From the NCBI RefSeq assembly GCF_053078305.1, contig NZ_CP166879.1: a stretch of DNA of 64,000 bases. One strand, given 5' to 3'. Shown piece after piece: positions 51,716-63,652 of the stretch. Under the pieces are notes generated by a model. That model saw only the letters and a list, made by a program, of their open reading frames with translations. It did no database searches and had not been told where the DNA came from. Made by a program: the position numbers and the translations under genes. Positions within the stretch are counted from its first letter, which is position 1; each line of letters starts with the position of its first letter.

Positions 51716-51779
51716 CGCTTCAGGGCCCCAGTAAAGGGGCCCAGCTATCAATTTGTCATTTCAATTACGCGAAAATTAT

Positions 51780-52760
51780 ATGAACGCAATAATATCGCCC
51801 GATTATTACTATGTTCTTACCGTTGCTGGTCAGTCTAATGCTATGGCGTATGGCGAAGGACTGCCATTACCGGACAGGGAAGATGCGCCTCATCCCAGAA
51901 TTAAACAATTAGCGAGATTTGCGCATACGCATCCCGGAGGCCCGTCATGTCACTTTAACGACATTATTCCACTGACTCACTGCCCACACGATGTTCAGGA
52001 TATGCAGGGTTATCACCATCCTCTGGCAACGAATCATCAAACACAGTACGGCACCGTTGGCCAGGCACTGCATATTGCACGGAAATTACTGCCCTTCATT
52101 CCTGATAATGCAGGGGTTCTCATCGTTCCATGTTGTCGTGGCGGCTCGGCTTTTATCGCAGGCAGCGAAGGGACATATTCAGAACGGCACGGAGCCAGCC
52201 ATGATGCTTGTCGTTGGGGAACGGATACTCCGCTATACCAGGATTTAGTCAGCAGAACGCGAGCCGCACTGGCAAAAAATCCGCAGAACAAATTCCTCGG
52301 CGTATGCTGGATGCAAGGCGAATTTGACTTAATGACCAGTGACTACGCGTCACACCCTCAACACTTTAATCATATGGTTGAAGCCTTTCGTAGGGATCTA
52401 AAACAATACCATTCTCAGCTTAATAATATTACTGATGCGCCCTGGTTTTGCGGCGATACCACCTGGTACTGGAAAGAAAATTTCCCTCATGCGTATGAAG
52501 TTATTTATGGCAATTATCAAAATAATGTTTTAGCCAATATTATTTTCGTCGACTTCCAGCAACAAGGTGAAAGAGGACTGACGAACGCGCCTGATGAAGA
52601 CCCGGACGATTTAAGCACGGGATATTACGGTTCAGCGTACCGGTCACCGGAGAACTGGACGACGGCACTGCGAAGCAGTCATTTCAGCACGGCAGCCCGT
52701 CGGGGGATTATTTCTGACAGGTTTGTAGAAGCAATTTTGCAGTTTTGGCGCGAAAGGTGA
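51780..52760 (+). CDS. nanS: 9-O-acetyl-N-acetylneuraminate esterase NanS
   Basis: 326 aa from MNAIISPDYYYVLTVAGQSNAMAYGEGLPLPD…. Confidence 0.8.
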   Translation: MNAIISPDYYYVLTVAGQSNAMAYGEGLPLPDREDAPHPRIKQLARFAHTHPGGPSCHFNDIIPLTHCPHDVQDMQGYHHPLATNHQTQYGTVGQALHIARKLLPFIPDNAGVLIVPCCRGGSAFIAGSEGTYSERHGASHDACRWGTDTPLYQDLVSRTRAALAKNPQNKFLGVCWMQGEFDLMTSDYASHPQHFNHMVEAFRRDLKQYHSQLNNITDAPWFCGDTTWYWKENFPHAYEVIYGNYQNNVLANIIFVDFQQQGERGLTNAPDEDPDDLSTGYYGSAYRSPENWTTALRSSHFSTAARRGIISDRFVEAILQFWRER

Positions 52761-52767
52761 GCGTTCA

Positions 52768-53418
52768 TTAATTTGATTTATTCGCATCCATCAACGCTTT
52801 TAACTCCTCCGGCGTAAACGGTGGTTTGCGTCGGTGCAACATCGCATGGCAATTAGGGCACACAGGAAGTAAATCATTAACTGGATCCAGCAGGTAATCC
52901 TCTTTAATGGCTGAAAGCGGCACCAGGTGATGCATATGGATAAAGCCCTCAGCGATATCGCCATAGATCTTCACCAGATCAACGCCGCATACGTTGCACT
53001 GGCATCCGTGATATTCGACTGCTTTCTCGCGAGCTTTTTTATCGCGTTCATAGCTGTTTACCGTCACCTTTATCGCCGCACCTTCAACGTAGGTCCCCTG
53101 CGACGGCAACTCATCCGGGAACAGAACATCGGCTATGGGAGCCGCAGCGGCTTTATCCTGATGAATATGAAATCCCTGATCTATAAGTAGCTTGACGCAT
53201 TTAGATTTTATTCCGCCGGTGAAATCCGCAGGGGTAAATTGCGTCCCCGTCATCAATGTCGCTGCGATGCCAGCAATCGCCTTCGAGGGGTAACGTCGGC
53301 CATGATATTCAATCTCATACAACCGTGCAGGCTGGAACTGATGAGTTTCTCCCGCATCCCATAAATGAATAGCTTTGATGATATACCGCCGAGGAAGATG
53401 ATCGGGGAGTTTATTCAT
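52768..53418 (-). CDS. HNH-endonuclease-domain protein (possible modification-dependent restriction nuclease)
   Basis: 216 aa with a C-terminal HNH/zinc-finger signature CQCNVCG…HMHHLVP…N…CPNCH. The N-terminal domain is unidentified. Confidence 0.55.
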   Translation of the reverse strand: MNKLPDHLPRRYIIKAIHLWDAGETHQFQPARLYEIEYHGRRYPSKAIAGIAATLMTGTQFTPADFTGGIKSKCVKLLIDQGFHIHQDKAAAAPIADVLFPDELPSQGTYVEGAAIKVTVNSYERDKKAREKAVEYHGCQCNVCGVDLVKIYGDIAEGFIHMHHLVPLSAIKEDYLLDPVNDLLPVCPNCHAMLHRRKPPFTPEELKALMDANKSN

Positions 53419-53497
53419 GGAGAATGTCCTTATACGTTCTCAGAACAAGCAGCAAAAAAACAAATGAGATCAAAGTAATATATCTTCACTTGCAGGC

Positions 53498-54427
53498 TTG
53501 AACAGCAGAAAATTTGCGAGCATGATCGCAATTATTTCACTGCCAGGGATATCAATGGCTTCCAGTAAATCGCTACAGCAGGCAATTGCCAATATAAAAA
53601 TCTGGCATAAGGGTGAACAGCGCGCGCCGCATAAGCCATTGTTATTGCTATACGTATTAGCGGGATACCTGCATGGACATCCGCGCCTTTTCGATTATGG
53701 CTCGGAAATCTACGAACCTCTGCACAGTTTACTGGAACGTTTTGGGCCACAGCGTTCACAGTACCGACCTGATATGCCGTTCTGGCGATTACAAGGCGAC
53801 GGATTCTGGCAATTACACAATGCCGAGCGTTGCTCAACAGCAGGGAGCAGCCGACAACCGCCAGTGAAGGAACTGAACGAATACCACGTTGCAGGCGGTT
53901 TCGATGAACAGCACTACGCCCTGGTAACCGGCAATAAAAAACTCATCAATACTCTGGCGCAACAGATACTCGAAGCGCACTTCACCGAGAGTATTCAGGA
54001 AGAAATTGCTGACGAGCTGGGTTTTGATCTCCAGCAAATCCGTAAACAGCGCGACCCGTTATTTCGCAAAAATGTATTACGCGCTTATAAATACCAGTGC
54101 GCGATATGTGGCTTTAATATGCGCCACGACGACACCACCGTCGCGCTGGAAGCGGCGCATATAAAATGGAAACAGCACGGCGGTCCTTGTGAAATTCCTA
54201 ATGGCCTGGCGCTTTGCGCAATTCACCATAAAGCCTTTGATAAAGGATCGATTGGCCTGGACGAAAATATGCGGGTACTGGTATCAGATGCGGTAAACGG
54301 CGGAGGGATCGTTGAGAGATTATTCTGGGATTTTGACGGGAAAACTATTGCGTTGCCGCAGGTGCGTAAAAATTACCCTTATGAGGGGTTTGTGGAGTGG
54401 CATCGGAAAGAGGTTTTTAGGGGGTGA
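53498..54427 (+). CDS. HNH-endonuclease-domain protein (second copy, divergent)
   Basis: 309 aa with a C-terminal HNH signature YQCAICGF…AAHIKW…NGLALCAIHHKAFDKG. The N-terminal domain is unidentified. Confidence 0.55.
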   Translation: MNSRKFASMIAIISLPGISMASSKSLQQAIANIKIWHKGEQRAPHKPLLLLYVLAGYLHGHPRLFDYGSEIYEPLHSLLERFGPQRSQYRPDMPFWRLQGDGFWQLHNAERCSTAGSSRQPPVKELNEYHVAGGFDEQHYALVTGNKKLINTLAQQILEAHFTESIQEEIADELGFDLQQIRKQRDPLFRKNVLRAYKYQCAICGFNMRHDDTTVALEAAHIKWKQHGGPCEIPNGLALCAIHHKAFDKGSIGLDENMRVLVSDAVNGGGIVERLFWDFDGKTIALPQVRKNYPYEGFVEWHRKEVFRG

Positions 54428-54468
54428 GGTTGATAACTATCGCAGTATGTTCAATATTGCTGACATAA

Positions 54469-54651
54469 TCAGTGCAGGATCTTGCCGCTAGTTTACAACT
54501 CGCCTTCGATAGCGGCGCAAAACGAGTTCTGTTGCCGATATCCTCGGCTATGGATATTCCAACAGTTCCGGCAGAGTTGTTTACCAAGTTTCAGGTAAGT
54601 TTTTACTCAGAACCGGTTGATGCGGTTTATAAGGCGCTGGATGTGAATTAA
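54469..54651 (+). pseudogene. Possible 3' remnant of a Lon-like protease gene
   Basis: Start-less 60-codon frame ending …LQLAFDSGAKRVLLPISSAMDIPTVPAELFTKFQVSFYSEPVDAVYKALDVN*. This resembles the extreme C-terminus of Lon-family protease domains. Confidence 0.3.
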
Positions 54652-55049
54652 CACATTCCTCAGCTTATTTATAAAAGGATTATTCCCATTTGATATAATA
54701 TCAGTGCCAATTTACTTTTTTCAATGGAATATATCTCGGCTAAATAACAATAAAACTTATCGCTAATGGATTAAATAAACAATTTTCTAATTCATTTCAC
54801 CACCTTTGATATAGAAATTGATGGTGTTGTCGCTGCCATTGCTTATGGTGATGATAAAATCCACGTTTCTGGATCGTTGCGTAGAAAATCATCACTACCT
54901 TGATATTTTGATGCGATATGATCATACCGTTCCGTAGTACCAATTTCAATTTCAGGCTAAACCCCAACATTAAAAAAATTAGAGTTATTCACTGATTATA
55001 TTATCAATAATATAATCAGTGAATAACATGGACTATATAATAAATTGCT

Positions 55050-57320
55050 CTAATCATTTCCCTTACGAATATATGGGCCAAAAGCCCAAGAATCATAATA
55101 AGGGTGATGGACTAGTTTTTCATTAAATCGAACACTATAAGTTAATTTTTTTATATTTTTACGTACAGCATTAATACTGGGCAAAGAGGAAAGATAATCT
55201 ATAAACTTATCGATAGTGATTTCCCCTTCGCAACACTCAAACCCATCAATGATATTTTTCGCCATTTTTCCATTTTCATTTGTTTGATATATCACTCCAG
55301 GTATTCGTTGAAAAAAACTAGATAATGCATATTTGTCCGCTACATATGTATCATCCACATGATATTTCCCACCGAGCATAGTTGTAGTAACAATAAGCTT
55401 ATACACACCTTTGGGTTGCCATGTTGATGGTAGTTCGAATTCTTTAATGATCACATCAAGATGATTAAGATAATGTTCAGAAATTCGATTTATTTGTTGA
55501 AAATAAGAACGCATAAATTTATTATTATGATCATGTATTAATGAGCTATCTCCAACGATGTTACACACTTGCTGATAGTACTTACCATAATATATTGGTT
55601 GACCATTTGATTTTAGTTCTGTAAAAATCAAACAATCATCCAGGAGAATCACGCAATCGCACTGATAATTAGCATGAGCATCAATTGGAGAAGCTTTAAT
55701 CCCCGCATCACGAACTTGTTTTATAAATTGTTGCTCATGAAATCGCCCTTTACTTGCTTGAGAAATTTTTTTGGAACCAAATAATGACATTAGAGAGCGA
55801 GTCACTGAGCTATTTGCTATTAATGCAGGCATTAAGCATAAACCGTCCATACAGGGAATAAATGGGCAATCATTAAGATCATGTGATTTTGAATTGAAGG
55901 TAAAATAATCTATCAGTTTTTTTGCTGCATCTGCTGCAATCCCCTTACGTTGAAAGAATGATAACCAACTCTCACGGCTTTTTATGATCAGCCAGCGATC
56001 CAACTGTAGGGGTATAGGTTTTGTCGATGAAAATCTTTTGCTCATTTCTTCTTTAGATAACTCGACTAAACATTGATAAGCGTGCACCCAATTAAATAAT
56101 GATATATTCCCATATTCTTCATGAAGGTCATCAGGAGATATATTTTCCAACTCGCTTAGATGAAATGAGCTAAAAACGCCATCAGAATTTAAGTAAGATG
56201 GCATATGATCCTTTACCCAACTATTTAGATGAAAATGTTTGTTACTAAATTCATGAACTTCGCTATATAGATGTGACGCTCTCATCATTAGTCTATTTCT
56301 TGCAATCTCATAATCTCGGTATAAACAAAAACTATCAACCTCAAGAGAGTAAATGTTATTATCCAATTTTGTAAATACTGCACTACTTAGTCTGAAAAAG
56401 TCTCTTACTCTGCTTAATGAGTCAAAAACATTCCACTCATTAAGGTACCCTCCCATTGAAAGCAAGGTTTGTTTATTCACACAAGAAGTTAGTTTCAATG
56501 GCTCATGAGTCCGTAAATAAGAAAATATTCGTCCGGTGTAATTGGCTACCTCATCAAATGCCCTATCGATAACTCGAAAATATTCGATATCAGGTTCAGC
56601 ATGAATATTAATATTTTCAGAAACGATTACTCTGCTTAATGAGTCAAAAACATTCCACTCATTAAGGTACCCTCCCATTGAAAGCAAGGTTTGTTTATTC
56701 ACACAAGAAGTTAGTTTCAATGGCTCATGAGTCCGTAAATAAGAAAATATTCGTCCGGTGTAATTGGCTACCTCATCAAATGCCCTATCGATAACTCGAA
56801 AATATTCGATATCAGGTTCAGCATGAATATTAATATTTTCAGAAACGATAAATAATGGAAAAATCCTCTTCATTTTTTTAGGATCATTGACCACAACCAA
56901 GGATGATAATGATGATAAAAACATCTCACAAAACATGATGAGATTAAGTATTAATGCATGTGATTTTTTTGTATTTTTACGCCAAATACCAGCACATTTT
57001 GTAGCCGCAAAGAAAGAATTATTTATATCATGCATAATTTTACATTGACTCTCGAACTCAGAAATTAGTTCAATGTTATCAGGAAATGAGTTTACTAGCT
57101 CATTAATACATTTTTTGAATGTATTGTTATACTCAACTTCAGTCTGAACTGAAAATCTATTATAATAGATGGAAGATATTCTCAGCACATCCAAGGCGAT
57201 ATCTATACTAATATCATCTCTTTTTATGTACTCACAAAAAAAAGAACAAAACTGTTTCGGGTCGTTAGCAAGATTACTAATTCTAGTGGTATCATAAACT
57301 TTTTCCATTTTTCCATACAT
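55050..57320 (-). CDS. Large low-GC hypothetical protein (756 aa) with an internal 74-aa perfect tandem duplication
   Basis: Long minus-strand ORF with its own AT-rich upstream region and no recognisable family by eye. A possible PD-(D/E)XK-like motif (CDCVILLDD…TELK) lies in the C-terminal third. Confidence 0.5.
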   Translation of the reverse strand: MYGKMEKVYDTTRISNLANDPKQFCSFFCEYIKRDDISIDIALDVLRISSIYYNRFSVQTEVEYNNTFKKCINELVNSFPDNIELISEFESQCKIMHDINNSFFAATKCAGIWRKNTKKSHALILNLIMFCEMFLSSLSSLVVVNDPKKMKRIFPLFIVSENINIHAEPDIEYFRVIDRAFDEVANYTGRIFSYLRTHEPLKLTSCVNKQTLLSMGGYLNEWNVFDSLSRVIVSENINIHAEPDIEYFRVIDRAFDEVANYTGRIFSYLRTHEPLKLTSCVNKQTLLSMGGYLNEWNVFDSLSRVRDFFRLSSAVFTKLDNNIYSLEVDSFCLYRDYEIARNRLMMRASHLYSEVHEFSNKHFHLNSWVKDHMPSYLNSDGVFSSFHLSELENISPDDLHEEYGNISLFNWVHAYQCLVELSKEEMSKRFSSTKPIPLQLDRWLIIKSRESWLSFFQRKGIAADAAKKLIDYFTFNSKSHDLNDCPFIPCMDGLCLMPALIANSSVTRSLMSLFGSKKISQASKGRFHEQQFIKQVRDAGIKASPIDAHANYQCDCVILLDDCLIFTELKSNGQPIYYGKYYQQVCNIVGDSSLIHDHNNKFMRSYFQQINRISEHYLNHLDVIIKEFELPSTWQPKGVYKLIVTTTMLGGKYHVDDTYVADKYALSSFFQRIPGVIYQTNENGKMAKNIIDGFECCEGEITIDKFIDYLSSLPSINAVRKNIKKLTYSVRFNEKLVHHPYYDSWAFGPYIRKGND
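56405..56849 (-). repeat. Perfect 222-bp direct tandem duplication, in frame, inside the 756-aa ORF
   Basis: The two adjacent 222-bp copies are identical by eye and encode …SENINIHAEPDIEYFRVIDRAF…NEWNVFDSLSRV twice. Confidence 0.85.
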
Positions 57321-57975
57321 CCTATTGTCTAAATTACTATAAAACTAGCCACTTAACTAATAATTATAAATTTCATCTTTTACACCTTGCATTTTTATAA
57401 CCAATGAAATCTACAACAAGCAACTGATGGATAATCCGATATTGGTCGCATTTAATGGCATGGTAGCAAAGTTTTCATCACATACCTCCTTTGCACCAGA
57501 ATAAACGCCAGAGATCTGAAATTGCGAGTACACTACAGAAATTGTACTGCTGGTCCCATCAGCATAAAACCATAGTTACACAGGTAATCATCATTATTCG
57601 CCAAGATAATAAATATTATTCGGTAGAATAGCGTTCTCAGGTGGTCAGTAAAATTGTCTTCAACAAGATGTCTGCGCATCTCGTCTGCTAGCCCTACATA
57701 ACTGCTCTCGACCGAAACTATTTATTGAATGTTCACCAAGGTGGGCGTGGAGACAAAATGACGTCTTTTGATATTAGCTACCTGAGCCACATGGTCAAAA
57801 CGTTCAAGTAGCATAGCGAAACCACCCTGCCCACGTAATGTGGACGATGCAGCTTCCAGCCAGAGCAAACTTGGGACCATCGACTACAAAATGAAGAATA
57901 CTGAACTGCTTTTCTGGCAGGCCTATATACTGCACGGATATGGGTGATTTCAGACACAAAAAAAGCCGCCCTTGA

Positions 57976-57998
57976 GCGACTCGATTTGCATACGGTGT
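57976..57998 (-). repeat. att-site remnant: partial copy of a tRNA-Leu (leuX-like) 3' end
   Basis: The minus strand reads GTTCGAGTCCGGCCTTCGCACCA (T-arm, acceptor stem, CCA) with one base missing relative to leuX as I recall it. There is no upstream tRNA body, so this is not a functional tRNA. Confidence 0.5.
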
Positions 57999-58285
57999 GG
58001 TGCGAAGGCCGGACTCGAACATTTAATTAAACAACTGTATTTAAATAGTTTTTGTATTTAAAAATGAATTGATGCCCCTTTTTGTGCCCCCATTACCAAA
58101 ATAACAACCTAACCTTGTACTAAAAAAGAGATTTTTCAATGTAGGCACTCTGGTTCGGCTACGCTTACCGGAGACGAACCTGAACATAAGAAATCTGAGA
58201 TAACTTCATAGTAATCATCTTTAACACTTTTGACCAATAATATCTATCATAAAGGCAGAGAAATTAATCTCTGCCTTTATTAAGG

Positions 58286-59154
58286 TCACATAAAAAGATT
58301 ATTAATTAGAGTACACTGTTGACATCCATTAATATCTACAGCTTTTAAAAAATCTGTGTTACTAATCAAAACAGCATTACTAACACCTGAAAACTGCAGC
58401 TGTGCATACATACCTAAGATAGATTTTTTTTCGTAATACTGAGATCTTCCTGTATAACTTTCACCAGTATTAGAACTTATAAATCGCCTCGTTCTTTCTT
58501 GTATCAATAAATTATTTTTAAGGAAGCTCAAAATATCTTGCTGCAATTGTTTGTTTTTGTTATGAAAATAACATAACAATTGATCCTCTAAGGTACCAAG
58601 CTGAGTGTTAACGTCATGAAAAATATACCCCCCCATTCACTCCCATTAAACTCAATAATACTTCCATTGGAGAGTTGAGTAGTATCTTCTAAACCTATCT
58701 CATTTTTAATCTCTGTTATTCTGGCATCAATGCCAAGTTCATCAGCATCAAAAAAATATAAAAATCTATATGCAATTTCTATACTGAAGTCATCTGTACC
58801 AGAAAGTTCTTTATACATAGTGACTAACTCAGCCCTTTCACGACTTCTGCCATCACCATTTAGATTATGTATAAAAATTAAGTTCCCGTTATGATAGAAA
58901 CAAACAGAAGGTAGTTTTGGCCCGTTTGGCTGAAAGCCAAGTTTTTTATCTGGAATTCTTACTTGACTTAGTTCTTTTTCAAAGCGTTTATCAAACGGTG
59001 GAGGTAATTGACCAATTTTAAGATCTTGAAGTTGGAATCCATTAACTAAAAGAATTCTGCTAAGAAAAGCGACGTCATGCTGTCCTTCACAAAAGGCAAC
59101 TATGACTCTATTATAAGATACACTCACAATTTTAGCCTCTAATATCAAGATCAA
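58286..59154 (-). pseudogene. Toprim-like (OLD/AriB-like) gene split by a frameshift at a G7 tract
   Basis: ORFs 58588-59154 and 58286-58636 overlap across a C7/G7 homopolymer (58628-58634). The N-terminus has VAFCEGQHD and a later FFDADELG (Glu … DxD), suggestive of a Toprim fold. Fusing the frames gives an approximately 300-aa protein. Confidence 0.45.
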
Positions 59155-61369
59155 TATTTTTTATCAAATAGCCAAATCTTTCGCCATCAGCCCTTTTCAC
59201 TACTACTTTATCGTCAACTTTGCTTAACTGAAATCCAGTAATGCAATCATTATTATAATCATTATTTAAAAAAGCTCTGATACATTCACCCGAATGTGAC
59301 GTAAGGAACACTTGCACATTGAAACGTTCTGCAAGTTGTTGCGTAAATTTAGTAAACTCCAATAGTAAACTATAATGAATCGCAGTTTCAAATTCATCAA
59401 TAAAAAGTACACCGTTACGACATGCAGCAAAAGATAAAGCTATATAAAAGATGCGCTGAATACCCTCTCCATAAGAAGTAAGATCGAAACTTCTGTTAAA
59501 ATCATATGCTGATTCTACGATAAACCTTTTGAGCTCCATGTCTTCAGTAAATCTGACATCTTTTATCGTTGGCTCAATTTTATTCATGAATTCAATAACA
59601 AGGCCGATAGCGGATTGTATATTTAAATCATCTGATTCTGAGTCAGTTACAGACGTTAAATTTGCACCTATACTTTTGTTATAATCAGTGAGCAAATCGT
59701 CTATATCGTAGAAATAAGGGCTTTTAAATGACGATGAACACAAATGCGAAACTTGATCAGCGTTCCTTCTCATACGTTCATGGATAAAAGTATGGACTGT
59801 GTTATTTCTAAATTCTCCATCAATGCTAGACTTTAAGCTATAAGATGCTATATAGTCATCTTGTTTATCAATTGAAGAATCATCATATTTAATCATTTCA
59901 ACAGTAACATTACTATCATCAAATACTCCTGACAAGATTATTTTATCTTGGAAAAGAGCATTTAGCAATGTTGGACTCAAAGTACTGATTTTATTTTTTT
60001 GCCTAATAAGATTAAAATGCGATGAAATATCATTACGCTGCGTCAATAAGTAAATTGCTTCAAGCAATGAAGTTTTTCCAGCATTATTAAAGCCAGCAAT
60101 GATATTAATCTTATTGAAATTATCCAATGAGAAGTTTTTAAAGAATTTATATTTTTTGATATAAATGGATTTAAAATGTTTTTTTACTCCATACTCAAAA
60201 TTAGTTGTATAGTTTCCTCCTTCGATATTTATAGCCATCTGCTTTGGCATTATTTGTGTTAGTTTTTCTTTTGCATCATCTAATAAGCGCAAATCCTCTT
60301 GGTTTATGAGGCTACTATATAGATTTAAATCCTTTAAGGCGTCTTCAAGCTTGCTTAAAGCATTTTTATAGTTTTGCTGATTTACTGAACCGCTCGCAGC
60401 TAATCCTCTTGCAAGGCTACGTTCATCCTCCATTACCTTCAAGGCTTTTTCATTATTGATGAACAAAGCAAGATCTCGTATCTCAAGAGATTTAGTAATT
60501 ATAGGTTCTAGCTCAACGTATTCACCATTACTTTCCTCTTCAATATCATCTTCTAGCTCATTTTTCTCAAGGTATTCATCTGTTTTAGAGATCCACGAAA
60601 AAAGCCTATCAAGATTCACTAAATTTCTAGCATAATAACCGTTATCACTCCAGTCTAACCAAGATTTAATTACAGGCTTTTTGATTATTTCTTCAAAAAT
60701 ACCAAACATACTTGGTTCGAATTGCTCACCATACTCACTTGTTTTATATAAGGAAATTAGATTATAAACTCTAAGCATAGAGCGAAGACGCGTTTTAGAA
60801 ATACCGAGCGAACTAACTAGCTCATCTTCTTTTTCAACATACTCATCTCGAGTTTTGTCTTCATATGGTTTTAAAAAATCATAAAGCAGTTTGGACTGAT
60901 TATATGTTGACCACTTTTTATTACCACTTATATGCTTTAATCCCATTACAATCAGATGTTTTTCAACATCTTGATTATTATGGATTTCGAAAGGAACACT
61001 TCTAAAAATAGATGGATCTAGTTTTCCAATATCAAACCCCTTTTCATATGCTTCTTGCAATGCTTTCAGCGCCGTTACACGACGATTTCCCTCAAGGACT
61101 AAATAATTGTTATCTCCTAAATCCTTTACTTGAATAACATCAACATCTAAGTATCCATTAGATTTAAAACTTGCTATTAGATCTTTGATATTCTCTTGTC
61201 TATTTCCTTCTATAAAAAAGCGAGTCCTACGCTGAATTGTTGGATCTAGCATGTCCTTTTCTGAGACTGGCTTGTGCTGGTCATTGTCAACAAAACGGTA
61301 GTTATTAGGATCTAGAAATAAATTTTTTAAATTTTTGCTAATGCGCGGGCGAATTTGCTCGACATTCAT
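59132..61369 (-). CDS. Fusion of an N-terminal ParB/Srx-like domain with a C-terminal ABC-type (SMC/RecF/OLD-like) ATPase
   Basis: 745 aa. ParB box LVLEGNRRVTALKAL near the N-terminus; Walker A GFNNAGKTS, Walker B LFIDEFE and H-loop LTSHS in the C-terminal half. Low GC. Confidence 0.6.
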   Translation of the reverse strand: MNVEQIRPRISKNLKNLFLDPNNYRFVDNDQHKPVSEKDMLDPTIQRRTRFFIEGNRQENIKDLIASFKSNGYLDVDVIQVKDLGDNNYLVLEGNRRVTALKALQEAYEKGFDIGKLDPSIFRSVPFEIHNNQDVEKHLIVMGLKHISGNKKWSTYNQSKLLYDFLKPYEDKTRDEYVEKEDELVSSLGISKTRLRSMLRVYNLISLYKTSEYGEQFEPSMFGIFEEIIKKPVIKSWLDWSDNGYYARNLVNLDRLFSWISKTDEYLEKNELEDDIEEESNGEYVELEPIITKSLEIRDLALFINNEKALKVMEDERSLARGLAASGSVNQQNYKNALSKLEDALKDLNLYSSLINQEDLRLLDDAKEKLTQIMPKQMAINIEGGNYTTNFEYGVKKHFKSIYIKKYKFFKNFSLDNFNKINIIAGFNNAGKTSLLEAIYLLTQRNDISSHFNLIRQKNKISTLSPTLLNALFQDKIILSGVFDDSNVTVEMIKYDDSSIDKQDDYIASYSLKSSIDGEFRNNTVHTFIHERMRRNADQVSHLCSSSFKSPYFYDIDDLLTDYNKSIGANLTSVTDSESDDLNIQSAIGLVIEFMNKIEPTIKDVRFTEDMELKRFIVESAYDFNRSFDLTSYGEGIQRIFYIALSFAACRNGVLFIDEFETAIHYSLLLEFTKFTQQLAERFNVQVFLTSHSGECIRAFLNNDYNNDCITGFQLSKVDDKVVVKRADGERFGYLIKNIDLDIRG

Positions 61370-61630
61370 ATGTCACCTCAATGGTGTAGGAACTATACAA
61401 TGCAACTTTACTTGATACCTCAGCAATCAACAACTTCATGTTTTTGAAACTAAGCGCGCGCAGCCCCGCACGCCTGCCCGCTTCGCTTAACAGACTGGTT
61501 TTCATGCACCTCATAAATCGTCTCAGAAGCCACCAAACAAGGGTTTTCTCGTCAAAAATGGTGCATAAGACTCATGCGTTTTCATGCGCCATAGACATGC
61601 ACTCATTCGCTCTCATGCCAGCCAGGAAAA

Positions 61631-61662
61631 GGGGATAAAAAATCCCGGTACTGGACCGGGAT
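61631..61662 (-). terminator. Intrinsic terminator after the ogr/delta gene
   Basis: The minus strand reads ATCCCGGTCCAGTACCGGGAT followed by TTTTTAT, 21 nt after the stop. Confidence 0.55.
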
Positions 61663-61682
61663 TACGTGGGCGTTCTTTCTAA

Positions 61683-61964
61683 TCAGACAGGAATCTGCTG
61701 ACGGCTTGACAGTTTTGACGCGGAGCCATAGCGATTAAGTGTTTGCTGTTGTTTTTCCGGGGATTGTGCTTTGTCTGATAGCTGTTCATTGCGTCGGGGT
61801 TTCATGATTATCTTATCCACACTCTCCAGTGCCGTAAATGTGCAGGAACATTCCAGATTCTGGCACTGATACCACGAGCGTTTAACTGACGGAGCTTCAT
61901 AGGCTGCTGTTCTGGCGTGTGCAACTGTACCGCATTCCGGACATTTAAGTGCCATTAATATCAC
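61683..61964 (-). CDS. Ogr/Delta-family zinc-finger late-gene activator
   Basis: 93 aa with a CPECG…HARTA…YQCQNLECSCTF four-cysteine motif, like P2 Ogr and P4 Delta. Confidence 0.8.
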   Translation of the reverse strand: MILMALKCPECGTVAHARTAAYEAPSVKRSWYQCQNLECSCTFTALESVDKIIMKPRRNEQLSDKAQSPEKQQQTLNRYGSASKLSSRQQIPV

Positions 61965-62512
61965 TCCTGTATATCGTTAATGTCATTCAGGCGTTGCTGA
62001 AAACGCAGATGTTGTGCCGGGGTGTAAGAGCCCTGGCAATCACGAATCATCCCGGGGTCAGGCATCAAACCGGATTCATCCAGGATCTCACGATAATCCC
62101 CGGCAATTTCAGGCGGTGTTATTGTCAGCTGGCGAACCAGAGCACTGCGTAATATACGGGACGCAACGTCAACCCCTCCGCGCCCCTTCAGGAACGGAGC
62201 CAGTGCAGATGTCAGGGCTGCCCCATTCGCCTGCATAAAATTGCTGAGAGCGGCTTCTGTGCAGGCTTCCATCAGTAAATGCTGCGAGTAAATGCATTCG
62301 CGCGCAGCACAGTTAATTTGCCATTTCAGCACATCCAGACGTTCCCGCAGTAATTCGAGCTGTCGGGCATAATCTGCTGGTTTTTCTGTGGCAGCGAGGA
62401 GAGATGCTATCTGTTGTTCAACGGCTTTTCGGCTCTCACTATGTCCGGCCCACAGAATACGGGCATTCCGAAAACTGGTAAGTGCCTGGTCAGGCGTGCC
62501 TCGGGCCGTCAT
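61961..62512 (-). CDS. Psu-like (polarity suppression / capsid decoration) protein, tentative
   Basis: 183 aa, helical composition, size close to P4 Psu (about 190 aa). Operon position is between the sid-like and ogr-like genes. Confidence 0.5.
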   Translation of the reverse strand: MTARGTPDQALTSFRNARILWAGHSESRKAVEQQIASLLAATEKPADYARQLELLRERLDVLKWQINCAARECIYSQHLLMEACTEAALSNFMQANGAALTSALAPFLKGRGGVDVASRILRSALVRQLTITPPEIAGDYREILDESGLMPDPGMIRDCQGSYTPAQHLRFQQRLNDINDIQE

Positions 62513-63252
62513 ACTGCTTTCTCCTTCTCAGCAAGTTCCTGACGAACCTTAATTTTATGCATAGCTGCCGGAGAGAGTTGATTACTGAAATCCAGACGCG
62601 CCGCATAATCCGGGGCAATTCCCGCCAGTTTAAACACCGGGTCCTGTTCAGGCATCGCATCGTTAGCCAGAGCCGGTCTGGTGATATGTTTATGAATAAA
62701 GTCTTTCAGCACTGTGTCCGGGTCATTAACTGAATTCACCACACCCACAACGGCACTGGCTTCCCGGCCCATTGTGGATTTAAGCAGGCTCAGCGTCTGA
62801 ATAAGCGCTTTTCCATGCGATTGCATAAAATCTTCCCAGATTTGTTTTGCGCGAATATCCACAAGAATGTTATGCGCGTGGATATACTTTCCGGCTAATT
62901 CCGCAGCTTTCTGCGGCAAAAGTGCATTTTCGCTTTCCTGAGCCGCCAGCAGCTCATCAAAATCCTCAAGCGTTTCTCGTCCCAGCGCAATTTCCGTGCG
63001 CAGTTTTTTCATTTCCTTTGAAACCACGCCCTGACTTTCACGAAACAGCGTGCGCCACTCCTCATTCAGTGTGTTCGTCGTGGCTTCCATCTCAGCGCGA
63101 CGCTGGCGGATTGTCGCAATATTATCCGCTGCCGCTTTCTGCTGACGACGTGCTTCAAGCCATGCGTTTCTGGCTGTGTTCATGGTTTCCAGTGCCCGCT
63201 GCGTTACAGCCGGAAAAGTGGAAAGGTTGTTATTCACTGCGGTGTTGTTCAT
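62509..63252 (-). CDS. Sid-like capsid size-determination protein, tentative
   Basis: 247 aa (P4 Sid is about 244 aa), first gene of the operon, with an AGGAG ribosome-binding site before the ATG at 63252 and TGT-N12-ACA dyads upstream. Confidence 0.5.
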   Translation of the reverse strand: MNNTAVNNNLSTFPAVTQRALETMNTARNAWLEARRQQKAAADNIATIRQRRAEMEATTNTLNEEWRTLFRESQGVVSKEMKKLRTEIALGRETLEDFDELLAAQESENALLPQKAAELAGKYIHAHNILVDIRAKQIWEDFMQSHGKALIQTLSLLKSTMGREASAVVGVVNSVNDPDTVLKDFIHKHITRPALANDAMPEQDPVFKLAGIAPDYAARLDFSNQLSPAAMHKIKVRQELAEKEKAV

Positions 63253-63276
63253 GGCTTCTCCTGTCGGGTTGGTTCG

Positions 63277-63332
63277 TTACGTCAATTGTGTCGTGGCTGA
63301 CACAAGCACACTATCGGTGCTCAGTGTGTGGT
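63277..63332 (-). promoter_or_regulatory. Two TGT-N12-ACA dyads (candidate Ogr/Delta activator sites) upstream of sid
   Basis: TTGTGTCGTGGCTGACACAA (63276-63295) and TGTGTGGTGGCTGGCACA (63315-63332), about 38 bp apart. Confidence 0.45.
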
Positions 63333-63430
63333 GGCTGGCACAACGGGCGCTTGCGGTTATTCAGACGTGGCTATGAAAGCCAGCCAGATAAAAATGCCCT
63401 CAGTTTCAGTCTGCTTTATGTCCCTGATGC

Positions 63431-63619
63431 GGTGGAACAGGTGAAACATGTGTTACAGCTTTGTTTTATAAAGCACTTATATACACTGCACCGGTGGAAC
63501 ATCGCGGGTAACAAGGTGGAACAGCGGATTGGCTGGCGTTACATCTGTTCCACCTCACTATTTCAGAAGGTGGAACAGGTTCAGCCCTGTAAAATACGGT
63601 TGTTCCACCTGTTTCACCT
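63431..63619. repeat. Iteron cluster: about 8 copies of GGTGGAACA/TGTTCCACC in both orientations (P4 crr/ori-like)
   Basis: Perfect copies at 63431, 63493, 63515, 63546 (rc), 63569 and 63601 (rc), plus variants GGTGAAACA (63441) and TGTTTCACC (63611). P4 crr/ori carry TGTTCACC repeats bound by the alpha protein. Confidence 0.6.
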
Positions 63620-63652
63620 GTTACCCTTAATAAATAAGACTCACGCAAAGCC

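Follow-up and report, generated by a model that had tools for sequence, protein, structure and literature searches.

EcoWI is the described enzyme that stands closest to the locus considered here. This Type IIM/IV nuclease cleaves GpsAAC/GpsTTC phosphorothioate DNA at N7/N6 with Mg2+, and is a dimer that works better with two sites (PMC7461809). It abolishes transformation by dnd+ plasmids, makes about one nick for every three double-strand cuts when acting alone, and is active alone, as a homodimer, both in vitro and in vivo (PMC7461809); it is also in use for genome-wide phosphorothioate mapping (PMC9521924). ScoMcrA from Streptomyces coelicolor is a single chain of 561 residues in which a head domain, a sulfur-binding domain (SBD), an SRA domain and an HNH domain are joined (PDB 5ZMM), and its head is small, flexibly attached and free of dimer contacts in the crystal (PMC6224610). 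EcoKMcrA, from the e14 prophage of K-12, is an HNH nuclease dependent on 5-methylcytosine or 5-hydroxymethylcytosine (PDB 6GHC) with an NEco specificity domain, and the winged-helix (wH) type IV enzymes of the wH-HNH or the PUA-wH-HNH kind, such as SruGXI and HhiV4I, are stand-alone proteins of about 220-280 residues in which a small N-terminal sensing domain precedes the HNH (PMC11037411). Here, we analysed a 64,000-nucleotide stretch of Escherichia coli DNA (contig NZ_CP166879.1; the window hereafter) which, by the annotation of matching genomes, includes the fim - nanC - nanM - nanS region, and in which two intact HNH open reading frames lie divergently on opposite strands between nanS and a decayed defence island. 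We regard it as fairly probable that these two genes, A and B, form a cassette at the margin of the variable defence island found after nanS, and that they encode HNH restriction nucleases which are single-chain and independent of each other. B is an already known enzyme and A is uncharacterised, and the divergent cassette and its conserved operator have apparently not been described before.

The features of the cassette are as follows.

52768..53418, minus strand: gene A, predicted 216-residue head(ScoMcrA_N)-HNH nuclease, from its open reading frame, the family alignment and PF26345 plus PF01844 in homologue clusters; labelled 'HNH endonuclease' in RefSeq
53152..53403, minus strand: head domain of A, residues 6-89, basic
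52819..53106, minus strand: HNH domain of the McrA type in A (residues about 105-200), containing CxxC...HH...CPNCH, from the family profile and invariant residues
53419..53554, no strand: intergenic region, 136 bp of sequence between the two start codons
53514..53531, no strand: operator-like palindrome TTGCGA-N6-TCGCAA, 23 nt upstream of the B ATG
53555..54427, plus strand: gene B, 290-residue SBD-HNH protein, ecoWIR allele, from NF045808 and identity to E. coli W WP_000168572.1
53567..53980, plus strand: SBD of B, residues 5-142, from phmmer matches to 5ZMO, 5ZMN and 5ZMM and PF26340 in homologue clusters
54098..54262, plus strand: HNH_2 domain of B, residues 182-236, from Pfam PF13391 and similarity to the TagI HNH (6GHS)

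The open reading frames confirm what the first-pass annotation of this DNA had reported of the arrangement, namely two divergent HNH genes with outer coordinates 52768-54427 just past nanS, each with its HNH motif in the C-terminal part of the protein, and the motif is complete in both. The length of 216 residues given for A also stands. For B, the reported 309 residues do not, as the gene encodes 290 residues from the ATG at 53555, which is the start annotated in RefSeq for its orthologues (290 residues, 873 nt). The upstream TTG at 53498 was rejected as a start codon: it lies inside a conserved promoter-like block, and the 57 bases that separate it from the ATG form a conserved non-coding leader which carries an indel in other genera, Raoultella among them. 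The NCBIfam model likewise begins only at residue 25 of the 309-residue form, and K-12 has lost the stretch through a repeat-mediated deletion. With B starting at 53555, the spacer between the start codons is therefore 136 bp, and not the 80 bp originally given.

By its sequence, gene B belongs to the EcoWI family and is an ecoWIR allele, and every testable defining feature of that family was found in it. It scores 439.2 bits over positions 2-284 of 284 in NF045808, the NCBIfam model for 'phosphorothioated DNA-binding restriction endonuclease', which has a curated cut-off of 180 bits. The SBD is homologous to residues 97-233 of ScoMcrA, with phmmer E-values of 2e-8 to 1e-7 against 5ZMO, 5ZMN and 5ZMM (2.3e-8 for 5ZMO), and H26-K27 and M74-P75 occupy the positions aligned to the HR and YP dipeptides of ScoMcrA. 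These sulfur-recognition residues, HR/HK and YP, have been described as only 'relatively conserved' (PMC7461809), and MP at the YP position is also found in the E. coli W enzyme. The HNH_2 domain (PF13391, E 1.1e-9) retains C182-x2-C185, H202, N216, C221 and H224-H225. The dN/dS ratio (nonsynonymous to synonymous substitution) of the gene is 0.08-0.15. WP_000168572.1 of E. coli W is a protein of the same 290 residues from the same nanS locus, with which B shares 284 of 290 residues (98%), including the same HK and MP residues and the same HNH_2 motif. The six substitutions (H40N, R93L, G156R, K179N, H208Q and G278V, window residue first) spare the HK, MP and HNH_2 motifs entirely. From the REBASE naming convention, the locus, the family model and the matching size (the calculated mass is 33.31 kDa, against 33.4 kDa quoted for EcoWI), we infer this protein of strain W to be EcoWI. 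At 98% identity to EcoWI, gene B would be expected to share its phosphorothioate-dependent cleavage and restriction. The first-pass annotation had read both proteins as type IV enzymes; for B this is well founded, as an SBD-HNH protein with 439 bits on NF045808 and with the activity already demonstrated for EcoWI, and its N-terminal domain is homologous to the modification reader of ScoMcrA.

Gene A has no such characterised counterpart. Its protein can be aligned over the full length with 31 homologues and keeps every residue that is invariant among them, including the zinc ligands C141/C144/C187/C190 and H163, H164, N189, H191 and H195. Given these invariant residues and a dN/dS of 0.15-0.19 within E. 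coli, A is a real, maintained gene. In the PDB, a family profile of its first ~90 residues matched the N-terminal 'head' of ScoMcrA and nothing else (E 4.7e-10), and the same domain appears in precomputed annotation as PF26345, ScoMcrA_N. Clusters of homologues carry PF26345 together with PF01844, and these profile assignments place A in the head-HNH family. Residues 1-92 have an isoelectric point (pI) of 9.4. The HNH family profile matches EcoKMcrA 6GHC at residues 182-271 (E 1.3e-5) and also the ScoMcrA HNH at 462-534, and the single A sequence matches PF01844 weakly (E 0.0012), this being the only match in a search of a Pfam-A set that lacks PF26345. No NCBIfam family was found for A, and PADLOC returned just two weak mREase_IV matches. 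Where A occurs without B it is found in defence islands, beside a type I restriction-modification system, AAA_15/21 and ArdA in Sulfurovum and beside a helicase-PLD protein and toxins in Pantoea, and no methyltransferase adjoins it in E. coli according to the annotation of matching genomes. A phage origin of A was rejected, there being no full-length copy in 50,697 phage records.

Set against the described systems, the cassette distributes over two genes domains that ScoMcrA holds in one. Head and SBD lie on separate proteins, the HNH domains are of two types (PF01844 in A, PF13391 in B) and there is no SRA, so that neither protein joins SBD and SRA in one chain: A consists of head and HNH, and B of SBD and HNH_2 without head or SRA. 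Lacking the SBD and the SRA, A is no ScoMcrA orthologue; lacking the NEco domain, it is no orthologue of McrA either. Its HNH does align with EcoKMcrA at 182-271, including the CxxC, HH and CPNCH elements, and only residues 123-198 of A match the 6GHC chain (at 199-269), with no match to its N-terminal domain. The label '5-methylcytosine-specific restriction enzyme A' that some sources attach to A homologues finds no support here. In design, with a small N-terminal domain, an HNH and a stand-alone chain, A is built like the wH-HNH enzymes, and it is not one of them.

The head domain of A is widespread. When 1.84 billion representative proteins were searched with its profile, it turned up in 4138 clusters (at 50% identity), in proteins of 96 to 1567 residues and at N-terminal or internal positions. 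Among 67 longer representatives, its Pfam partners are HNH (25), HNH_2 (14), EVE (11), AAA_5 of the McrB type (7), nSTAND3 (6), NOV_C (6), DUF3427 (3), SAD/SRA (1) and AspBHI_N (1). This set of partners is the repertoire of modification-dependent restriction systems, and such domain association supports a putative role for the head in DNA targeting, with which the basic pI is consistent. None of the top 150 head-domain representatives contains an EcoWI-like SBD, and an argument from fusion is therefore confined to the ScoMcrA lineage. A literature search on the Pfam names of the head domain returned nothing beyond the 2018 ScoMcrA structure paper. The type IV reading of A divides in two. Context supports it, in that A is predicted to be a stand-alone nuclease without a cognate methyltransferase, sits in defence surroundings and has a head shared almost only with type IV-style architectures. 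The search of its N-terminal domain, which recovered the ScoMcrA head, gave no homology to the characterised readers (SRA, EVE/PUA, YTH, DUF3427, wH, SBD and NEco), and on this side the reading did not hold.

In the mechanism that we propose, the SBD of B would dock onto Rp-phosphorothioate links in GpsAAC/GpsTTC and B would dimerise, the HNH_2 domains then cutting both strands at the fixed distance N7/N6, as has been shown for EcoWI. Incoming DNA from dnd+ donors would be destroyed in this way and the unmodified host chromosome spared. A would act as a second stand-alone nuclease, a minimal relative of ScoMcrA that is harmless to host DNA and whose head most likely provides DNA or modification targeting. 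Since A must spare the Dam- and Dcm-modified DNA of its host, it probably needs a foreign feature which is recognised through the head. The two genes would be inherited together as a small defence cassette and yet work and decay separately, B having a palindromic control element of its own. That two different nucleases would widen the range of targets, as the first-pass annotation proposed, is plausible.

The same divergent pair recurs outside Escherichia, as follows (identities are to A and B of the window).

Citrobacter sp. Cu233 and FP75: A 69%, B 81% identity, divergent, spacer about 140 bp
C. amalonaticus: A 69%, B 78% identity, divergent, spacer 141 bp
K. quasipneumoniae: A 65%, B 79% identity, divergent, spacer 179 bp

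The pairs of Citrobacter and K. quasipneumoniae occupy other chromosomal sites than the E. coli pair, and because one divergent arrangement is met at unrelated sites in other genera, the adjacency of A and B is not due to chance. An integrative and conjugative element (ICE) of E. coli carries distant copies of A (57%) and B (51%), 4 kb apart. Raoultella planticola, C. portucalensis and Enterobacter MGH24 have, 23 nt after the B homologue and on its strand, a gene (L050:9683-10354 in Raoultella planticola) for a 223-residue protein with an Mrr_N-like (winged-helix) N-terminus, of the kind seen in the wH-HNH enzymes, and an HNH that is 53% identical to that of A; it is followed by a type I hsdR-like gene. 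A second, small HNH nuclease of the McrA type, its N-terminal domain swapped, is thus a repeated neighbour of EcoWI-family genes. Each gene also occurs without the other, B alone in Salmonella and E. hormaechei and A alone in Pantoea, Sulfurovum, Atlantibacter, Escherichia sp. ESNIH1 and Pseudescherichia. We infer that A and B are a recurrent cassette of enteric bacteria whose members do not depend on each other and have been lost independently.

Loss of either gene can be followed within E. coli. Strain W, home of EcoWI, has the neighbouring A deleted where the window has it intact: in W, as in LH09-a, about 580 bp have been cleanly deleted, and 105 nt of the gene remain. The junction is identical in W (L010:33845-34050) and LH09-a (L009:14767-14971) when compared with window positions 52873-53450; it reads …CAGGAAGTAAA on one side and AAAACAAATGAG… on the other and leaves the B promoter and the palindrome untouched. 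The deletion is therefore a single inherited event and not recurrent loss. EC21Z-097 shows the opposite state, in which A is whole and B breaks off after about 50 codons, and K-12 and BL21(DE3) retain only scars of both genes. BL21(DE3) here stands in for T7 Express, the host in which EcoWI was assayed, and as neither the native strain W nor this B-lineage proxy genome has A, B does not need A.

Between genera, the spacer is conserved only in its B-proximal half, where the conserved part, TTTTGCGAGCAT(C/G)ATCGCAATTATTT, contains the palindrome TTGCGA-N6-TCGCAA. This 18 bp element (53514-53531) ends 23 nt before the B ATG and is unique in the window, where 0.01 copies are expected by chance; copies at other loci include L002:11647-11664, L093:3956-3973 and L050:8749-8766. 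Its arms are invariant upstream of B homologues in 20 matched loci, including the 51%-identical ICE copy and Salmonella, and the palindrome was found upstream of every B homologue that was fetched, with A present or absent (E. coli W, Salmonella, Raoultella and Enterobacter). The intergenic region had originally been described as shared between the two genes; it does lie between them, and the one element conserved in it is that of B, which is retained in loci without A. In E. hormaechei one arm is TTGTGA, which we take to resemble a CRP half-site. The palindrome overlaps a -10-like CATGAT (53521-53526) placed 17 nt after a -35-like TTGAAC (53498-53503), the two together giving 8 of 12 matches to consensus; this is below the scan threshold, and a consensus promoter scan of the intergenic region returned nothing that reached it. 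The leader folds no better as RNA than shuffled sequence (z -1.08), which makes a DNA operator more likely, and the palindrome is probably an operator over the -10 region of B. The literature searched contained no match to its sequence. In Klebsiella pneumoniae ATCC 13883, this B-linked palindrome stands about 140 nt upstream of an A homologue (L015:9847-9863) with no detectable B coding sequence, which suggests that the cassette is ancestral there and that B was lost.

Three features flank the cassette.

51753..52760, plus strand: nanS (sialate O-acetylesterase), open reading frame annotated in matching genomes, convergent with A; left edge of the variable island
52679..52768, minus strand: 29-codon open reading frame 3' of A (TAATG overlap), antisense to the 3' end of nanS, from translation; RefSeq has a 90-nt hypothetical gene here
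54472..54651, plus strand: brxL remnant, the last 59 codons of a BREX Lon-like protease gene, from TIGR02653 and PADLOC; right neighbour of B

The A stop codon (52768-52770) begins 8 nt past that of nanS (52758-52760), and the small reading frame beyond it explains a K-12 gene. YthB of K-12 and BL21, a protein of 32 residues (MNKLPAHLSRQNCKIASTNLSEIIPRRAAVLK), joins the first five codons of A (MNKLP; window 53404-53418) to the frame of the 29-codon reading frame (52679-52768, minus strand), and its upstream region is homologous to that of A. On these translations (L012:4820-4918 in the K-12 derivative S17-1 and L101:15100-15198 in BL21(DE3)), YthB is the scar that a deletion has left of gene A. 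It has been detected as a chromosomally tagged protein (bioRxiv 10.1101/511675), and since it uses the start of A, the promoter, ribosome-binding site and start codon of A are therefore functional in E. coli. A further deletion, between two ACAGCAG repeats, has cost K-12 the palindrome together with codons one to eight of B.

With head, SBD and A-type HNH held in one ScoMcrA chain, a 'Rosetta-stone' argument can be made that A and B are subunits of one cooperative enzyme, a split ScoMcrA in which both nucleases are needed, for example because each nicks one strand or because A extends the specificity. The conserved divergent cassette at different loci of Escherichia, Citrobacter and Klebsiella, the second and more divergent A/B pair on one ICE, the pairing of B with another small nuclease that has the HNH type of A and an Mrr_N-like wH (Raoultella, C. 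portucalensis and Enterobacter MGH24) and the nicks left by EcoWI acting alone all fit such a scheme, which we nevertheless consider quite unlikely. EcoWI works by itself as a homodimer, and strain W and the B-lineage proxy genome do without A. Across 5426 complete E. coli genomes, the segment of A missing from W is present in 1237 and B, at a coverage of at least 80%, in 1706; the whole 1.8 kb of A and B occurs in 325, which is not above the roughly 389 expected under independence, and about 1380 genomes have B without A and about 910 have A without intact B, counts which use coverage thresholds with reading frames unchecked and phylogenetic non-independence ignored. The occurrence of B alone in Salmonella and E. 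hormaechei and of A alone in Pantoea, Sulfurovum, Atlantibacter and Pseudescherichia, the lack of an EcoWI-like SBD among the top 150 head representatives and the ScoMcrA head that makes no dimer contacts speak in the same direction. A broader proposal is that the head fold is a new sensor of DNA modification or of the backbone, making A a minimal type IV enzyme of new specificity, or else that A and EcoWI form a split ScoMcrA-like system. We hold this to be doubtful; if true, it would explain both the conservation of the cassette across genera and the thousands of head clusters.

The decay seen at this site invites a more sceptical view, that A and B are mere neighbours in a defence-island hotspot and that A, an HNH gene of homing or toxin-like type which is decaying or selfish, plays no part in restriction. 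The locus is indeed a graveyard, with the brxL remnant just downstream, scars of both genes in K-12 and BL21 and many lineages in which A is deleted or B truncated, and A has no NCBIfam model and weak PADLOC matches. We judge this view unlikely, as A is intact with every invariant residue and a low dN/dS (0.15-0.19), recurs beside B in the same divergent layout at unrelated sites in other genera, has no full-length copy in the phage records and bears a head found almost only in type IV-like architectures. It is highly improbable that A serves instead as a regulator of B, a controller or anti-toxin acting through the intergenic region and its palindrome and not as a nuclease. A divergent arrangement and a perfectly conserved palindrome over the probable -10 of B are what one would expect of such a pair, but the palindrome is equally conserved where A is missing (E. 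coli W, Salmonella, Raoultella and Enterobacter), A lies 4 kb from it on the ICE, A keeps a complete HNH catalytic and zinc motif under purifying selection, and B is tolerated without A on a plasmid as well as in the roughly 1380 genomes. Two independent nucleases are the reading that we prefer, and several points weigh against it. The head of A has no structural match to a known modification reader, the function of the ScoMcrA head has been described as unknown (PMC6224610), and a literature search found no experimental data for any head-HNH protein. In larger proteins the head often stands beside genuine readers (EVE, SRA and SBD), so it may be an accessory domain for DNA binding or regulation and not a sensor. 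The E-values of the A HNH in Pfam and the PDB are weak for the single sequence and become convincing only at the profile level, and the identity of the strain W protein with EcoWI is drawn from naming convention, size and family model. The reservations attached to the genome counts belong here too, and the recurrence of the cassette, taken with the fusion of head and SBD in ScoMcrA, still allows for some cooperation between the two genes.

Should A prove to be an ordinary redundant nuclease, the locus would be routine defence-island content. For EcoWI, the context changes in that the ancestral form would be a two-gene cassette of which strain W carries a deletion derivative. A offers a compact and easily cloned member of a very large head-domain family (the 4138 clusters above) for which a head structure has been solved, and a role found for its head could carry over to a large number of type IV-like systems. 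Invariant upstream of each EcoWI-family gene that was examined, the palindrome suggests a way of controlling a stand-alone restriction nuclease of which we found no description.

The surroundings of the cassette bear traces of other systems. The brxL remnant corresponds to positions 617-675 of 675 in TIGR02653 (E 3.8e-24) and to 623-680 of 680 in the PADLOC BrxL model, and a BREX system was probably once present at the nanS site. No dnd or ssp gene is among the annotated genes between 49 and 64 kb of the window. The stretch from 54400 to 64000 is covered to at least 80% by no complete E. coli genome in the collection. It includes a large AT-rich hypothetical gene (33% GC), a 756-codon open reading frame at 55050-57320 on the minus strand, for whose protein NCBIfam gave no match and PADLOC only a faint one (PDC-M29B). 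Within this gene, a perfect tandem duplication of 222 bp (56405-56849, 2.0 copies, 100% identical) adds 74 in-frame residues; it either arose very recently or is an artefact of the assembly. From about 58286 to 64000, the window holds the end of a P4-like satellite prophage, with psu-like genes, an ogr/delta-like gene and a TOPRIM-DUF927 primase as annotated in matching genomes, and this end carries a 745-residue AAA ATPase and small open reading frames at the position of the variable defence slot.

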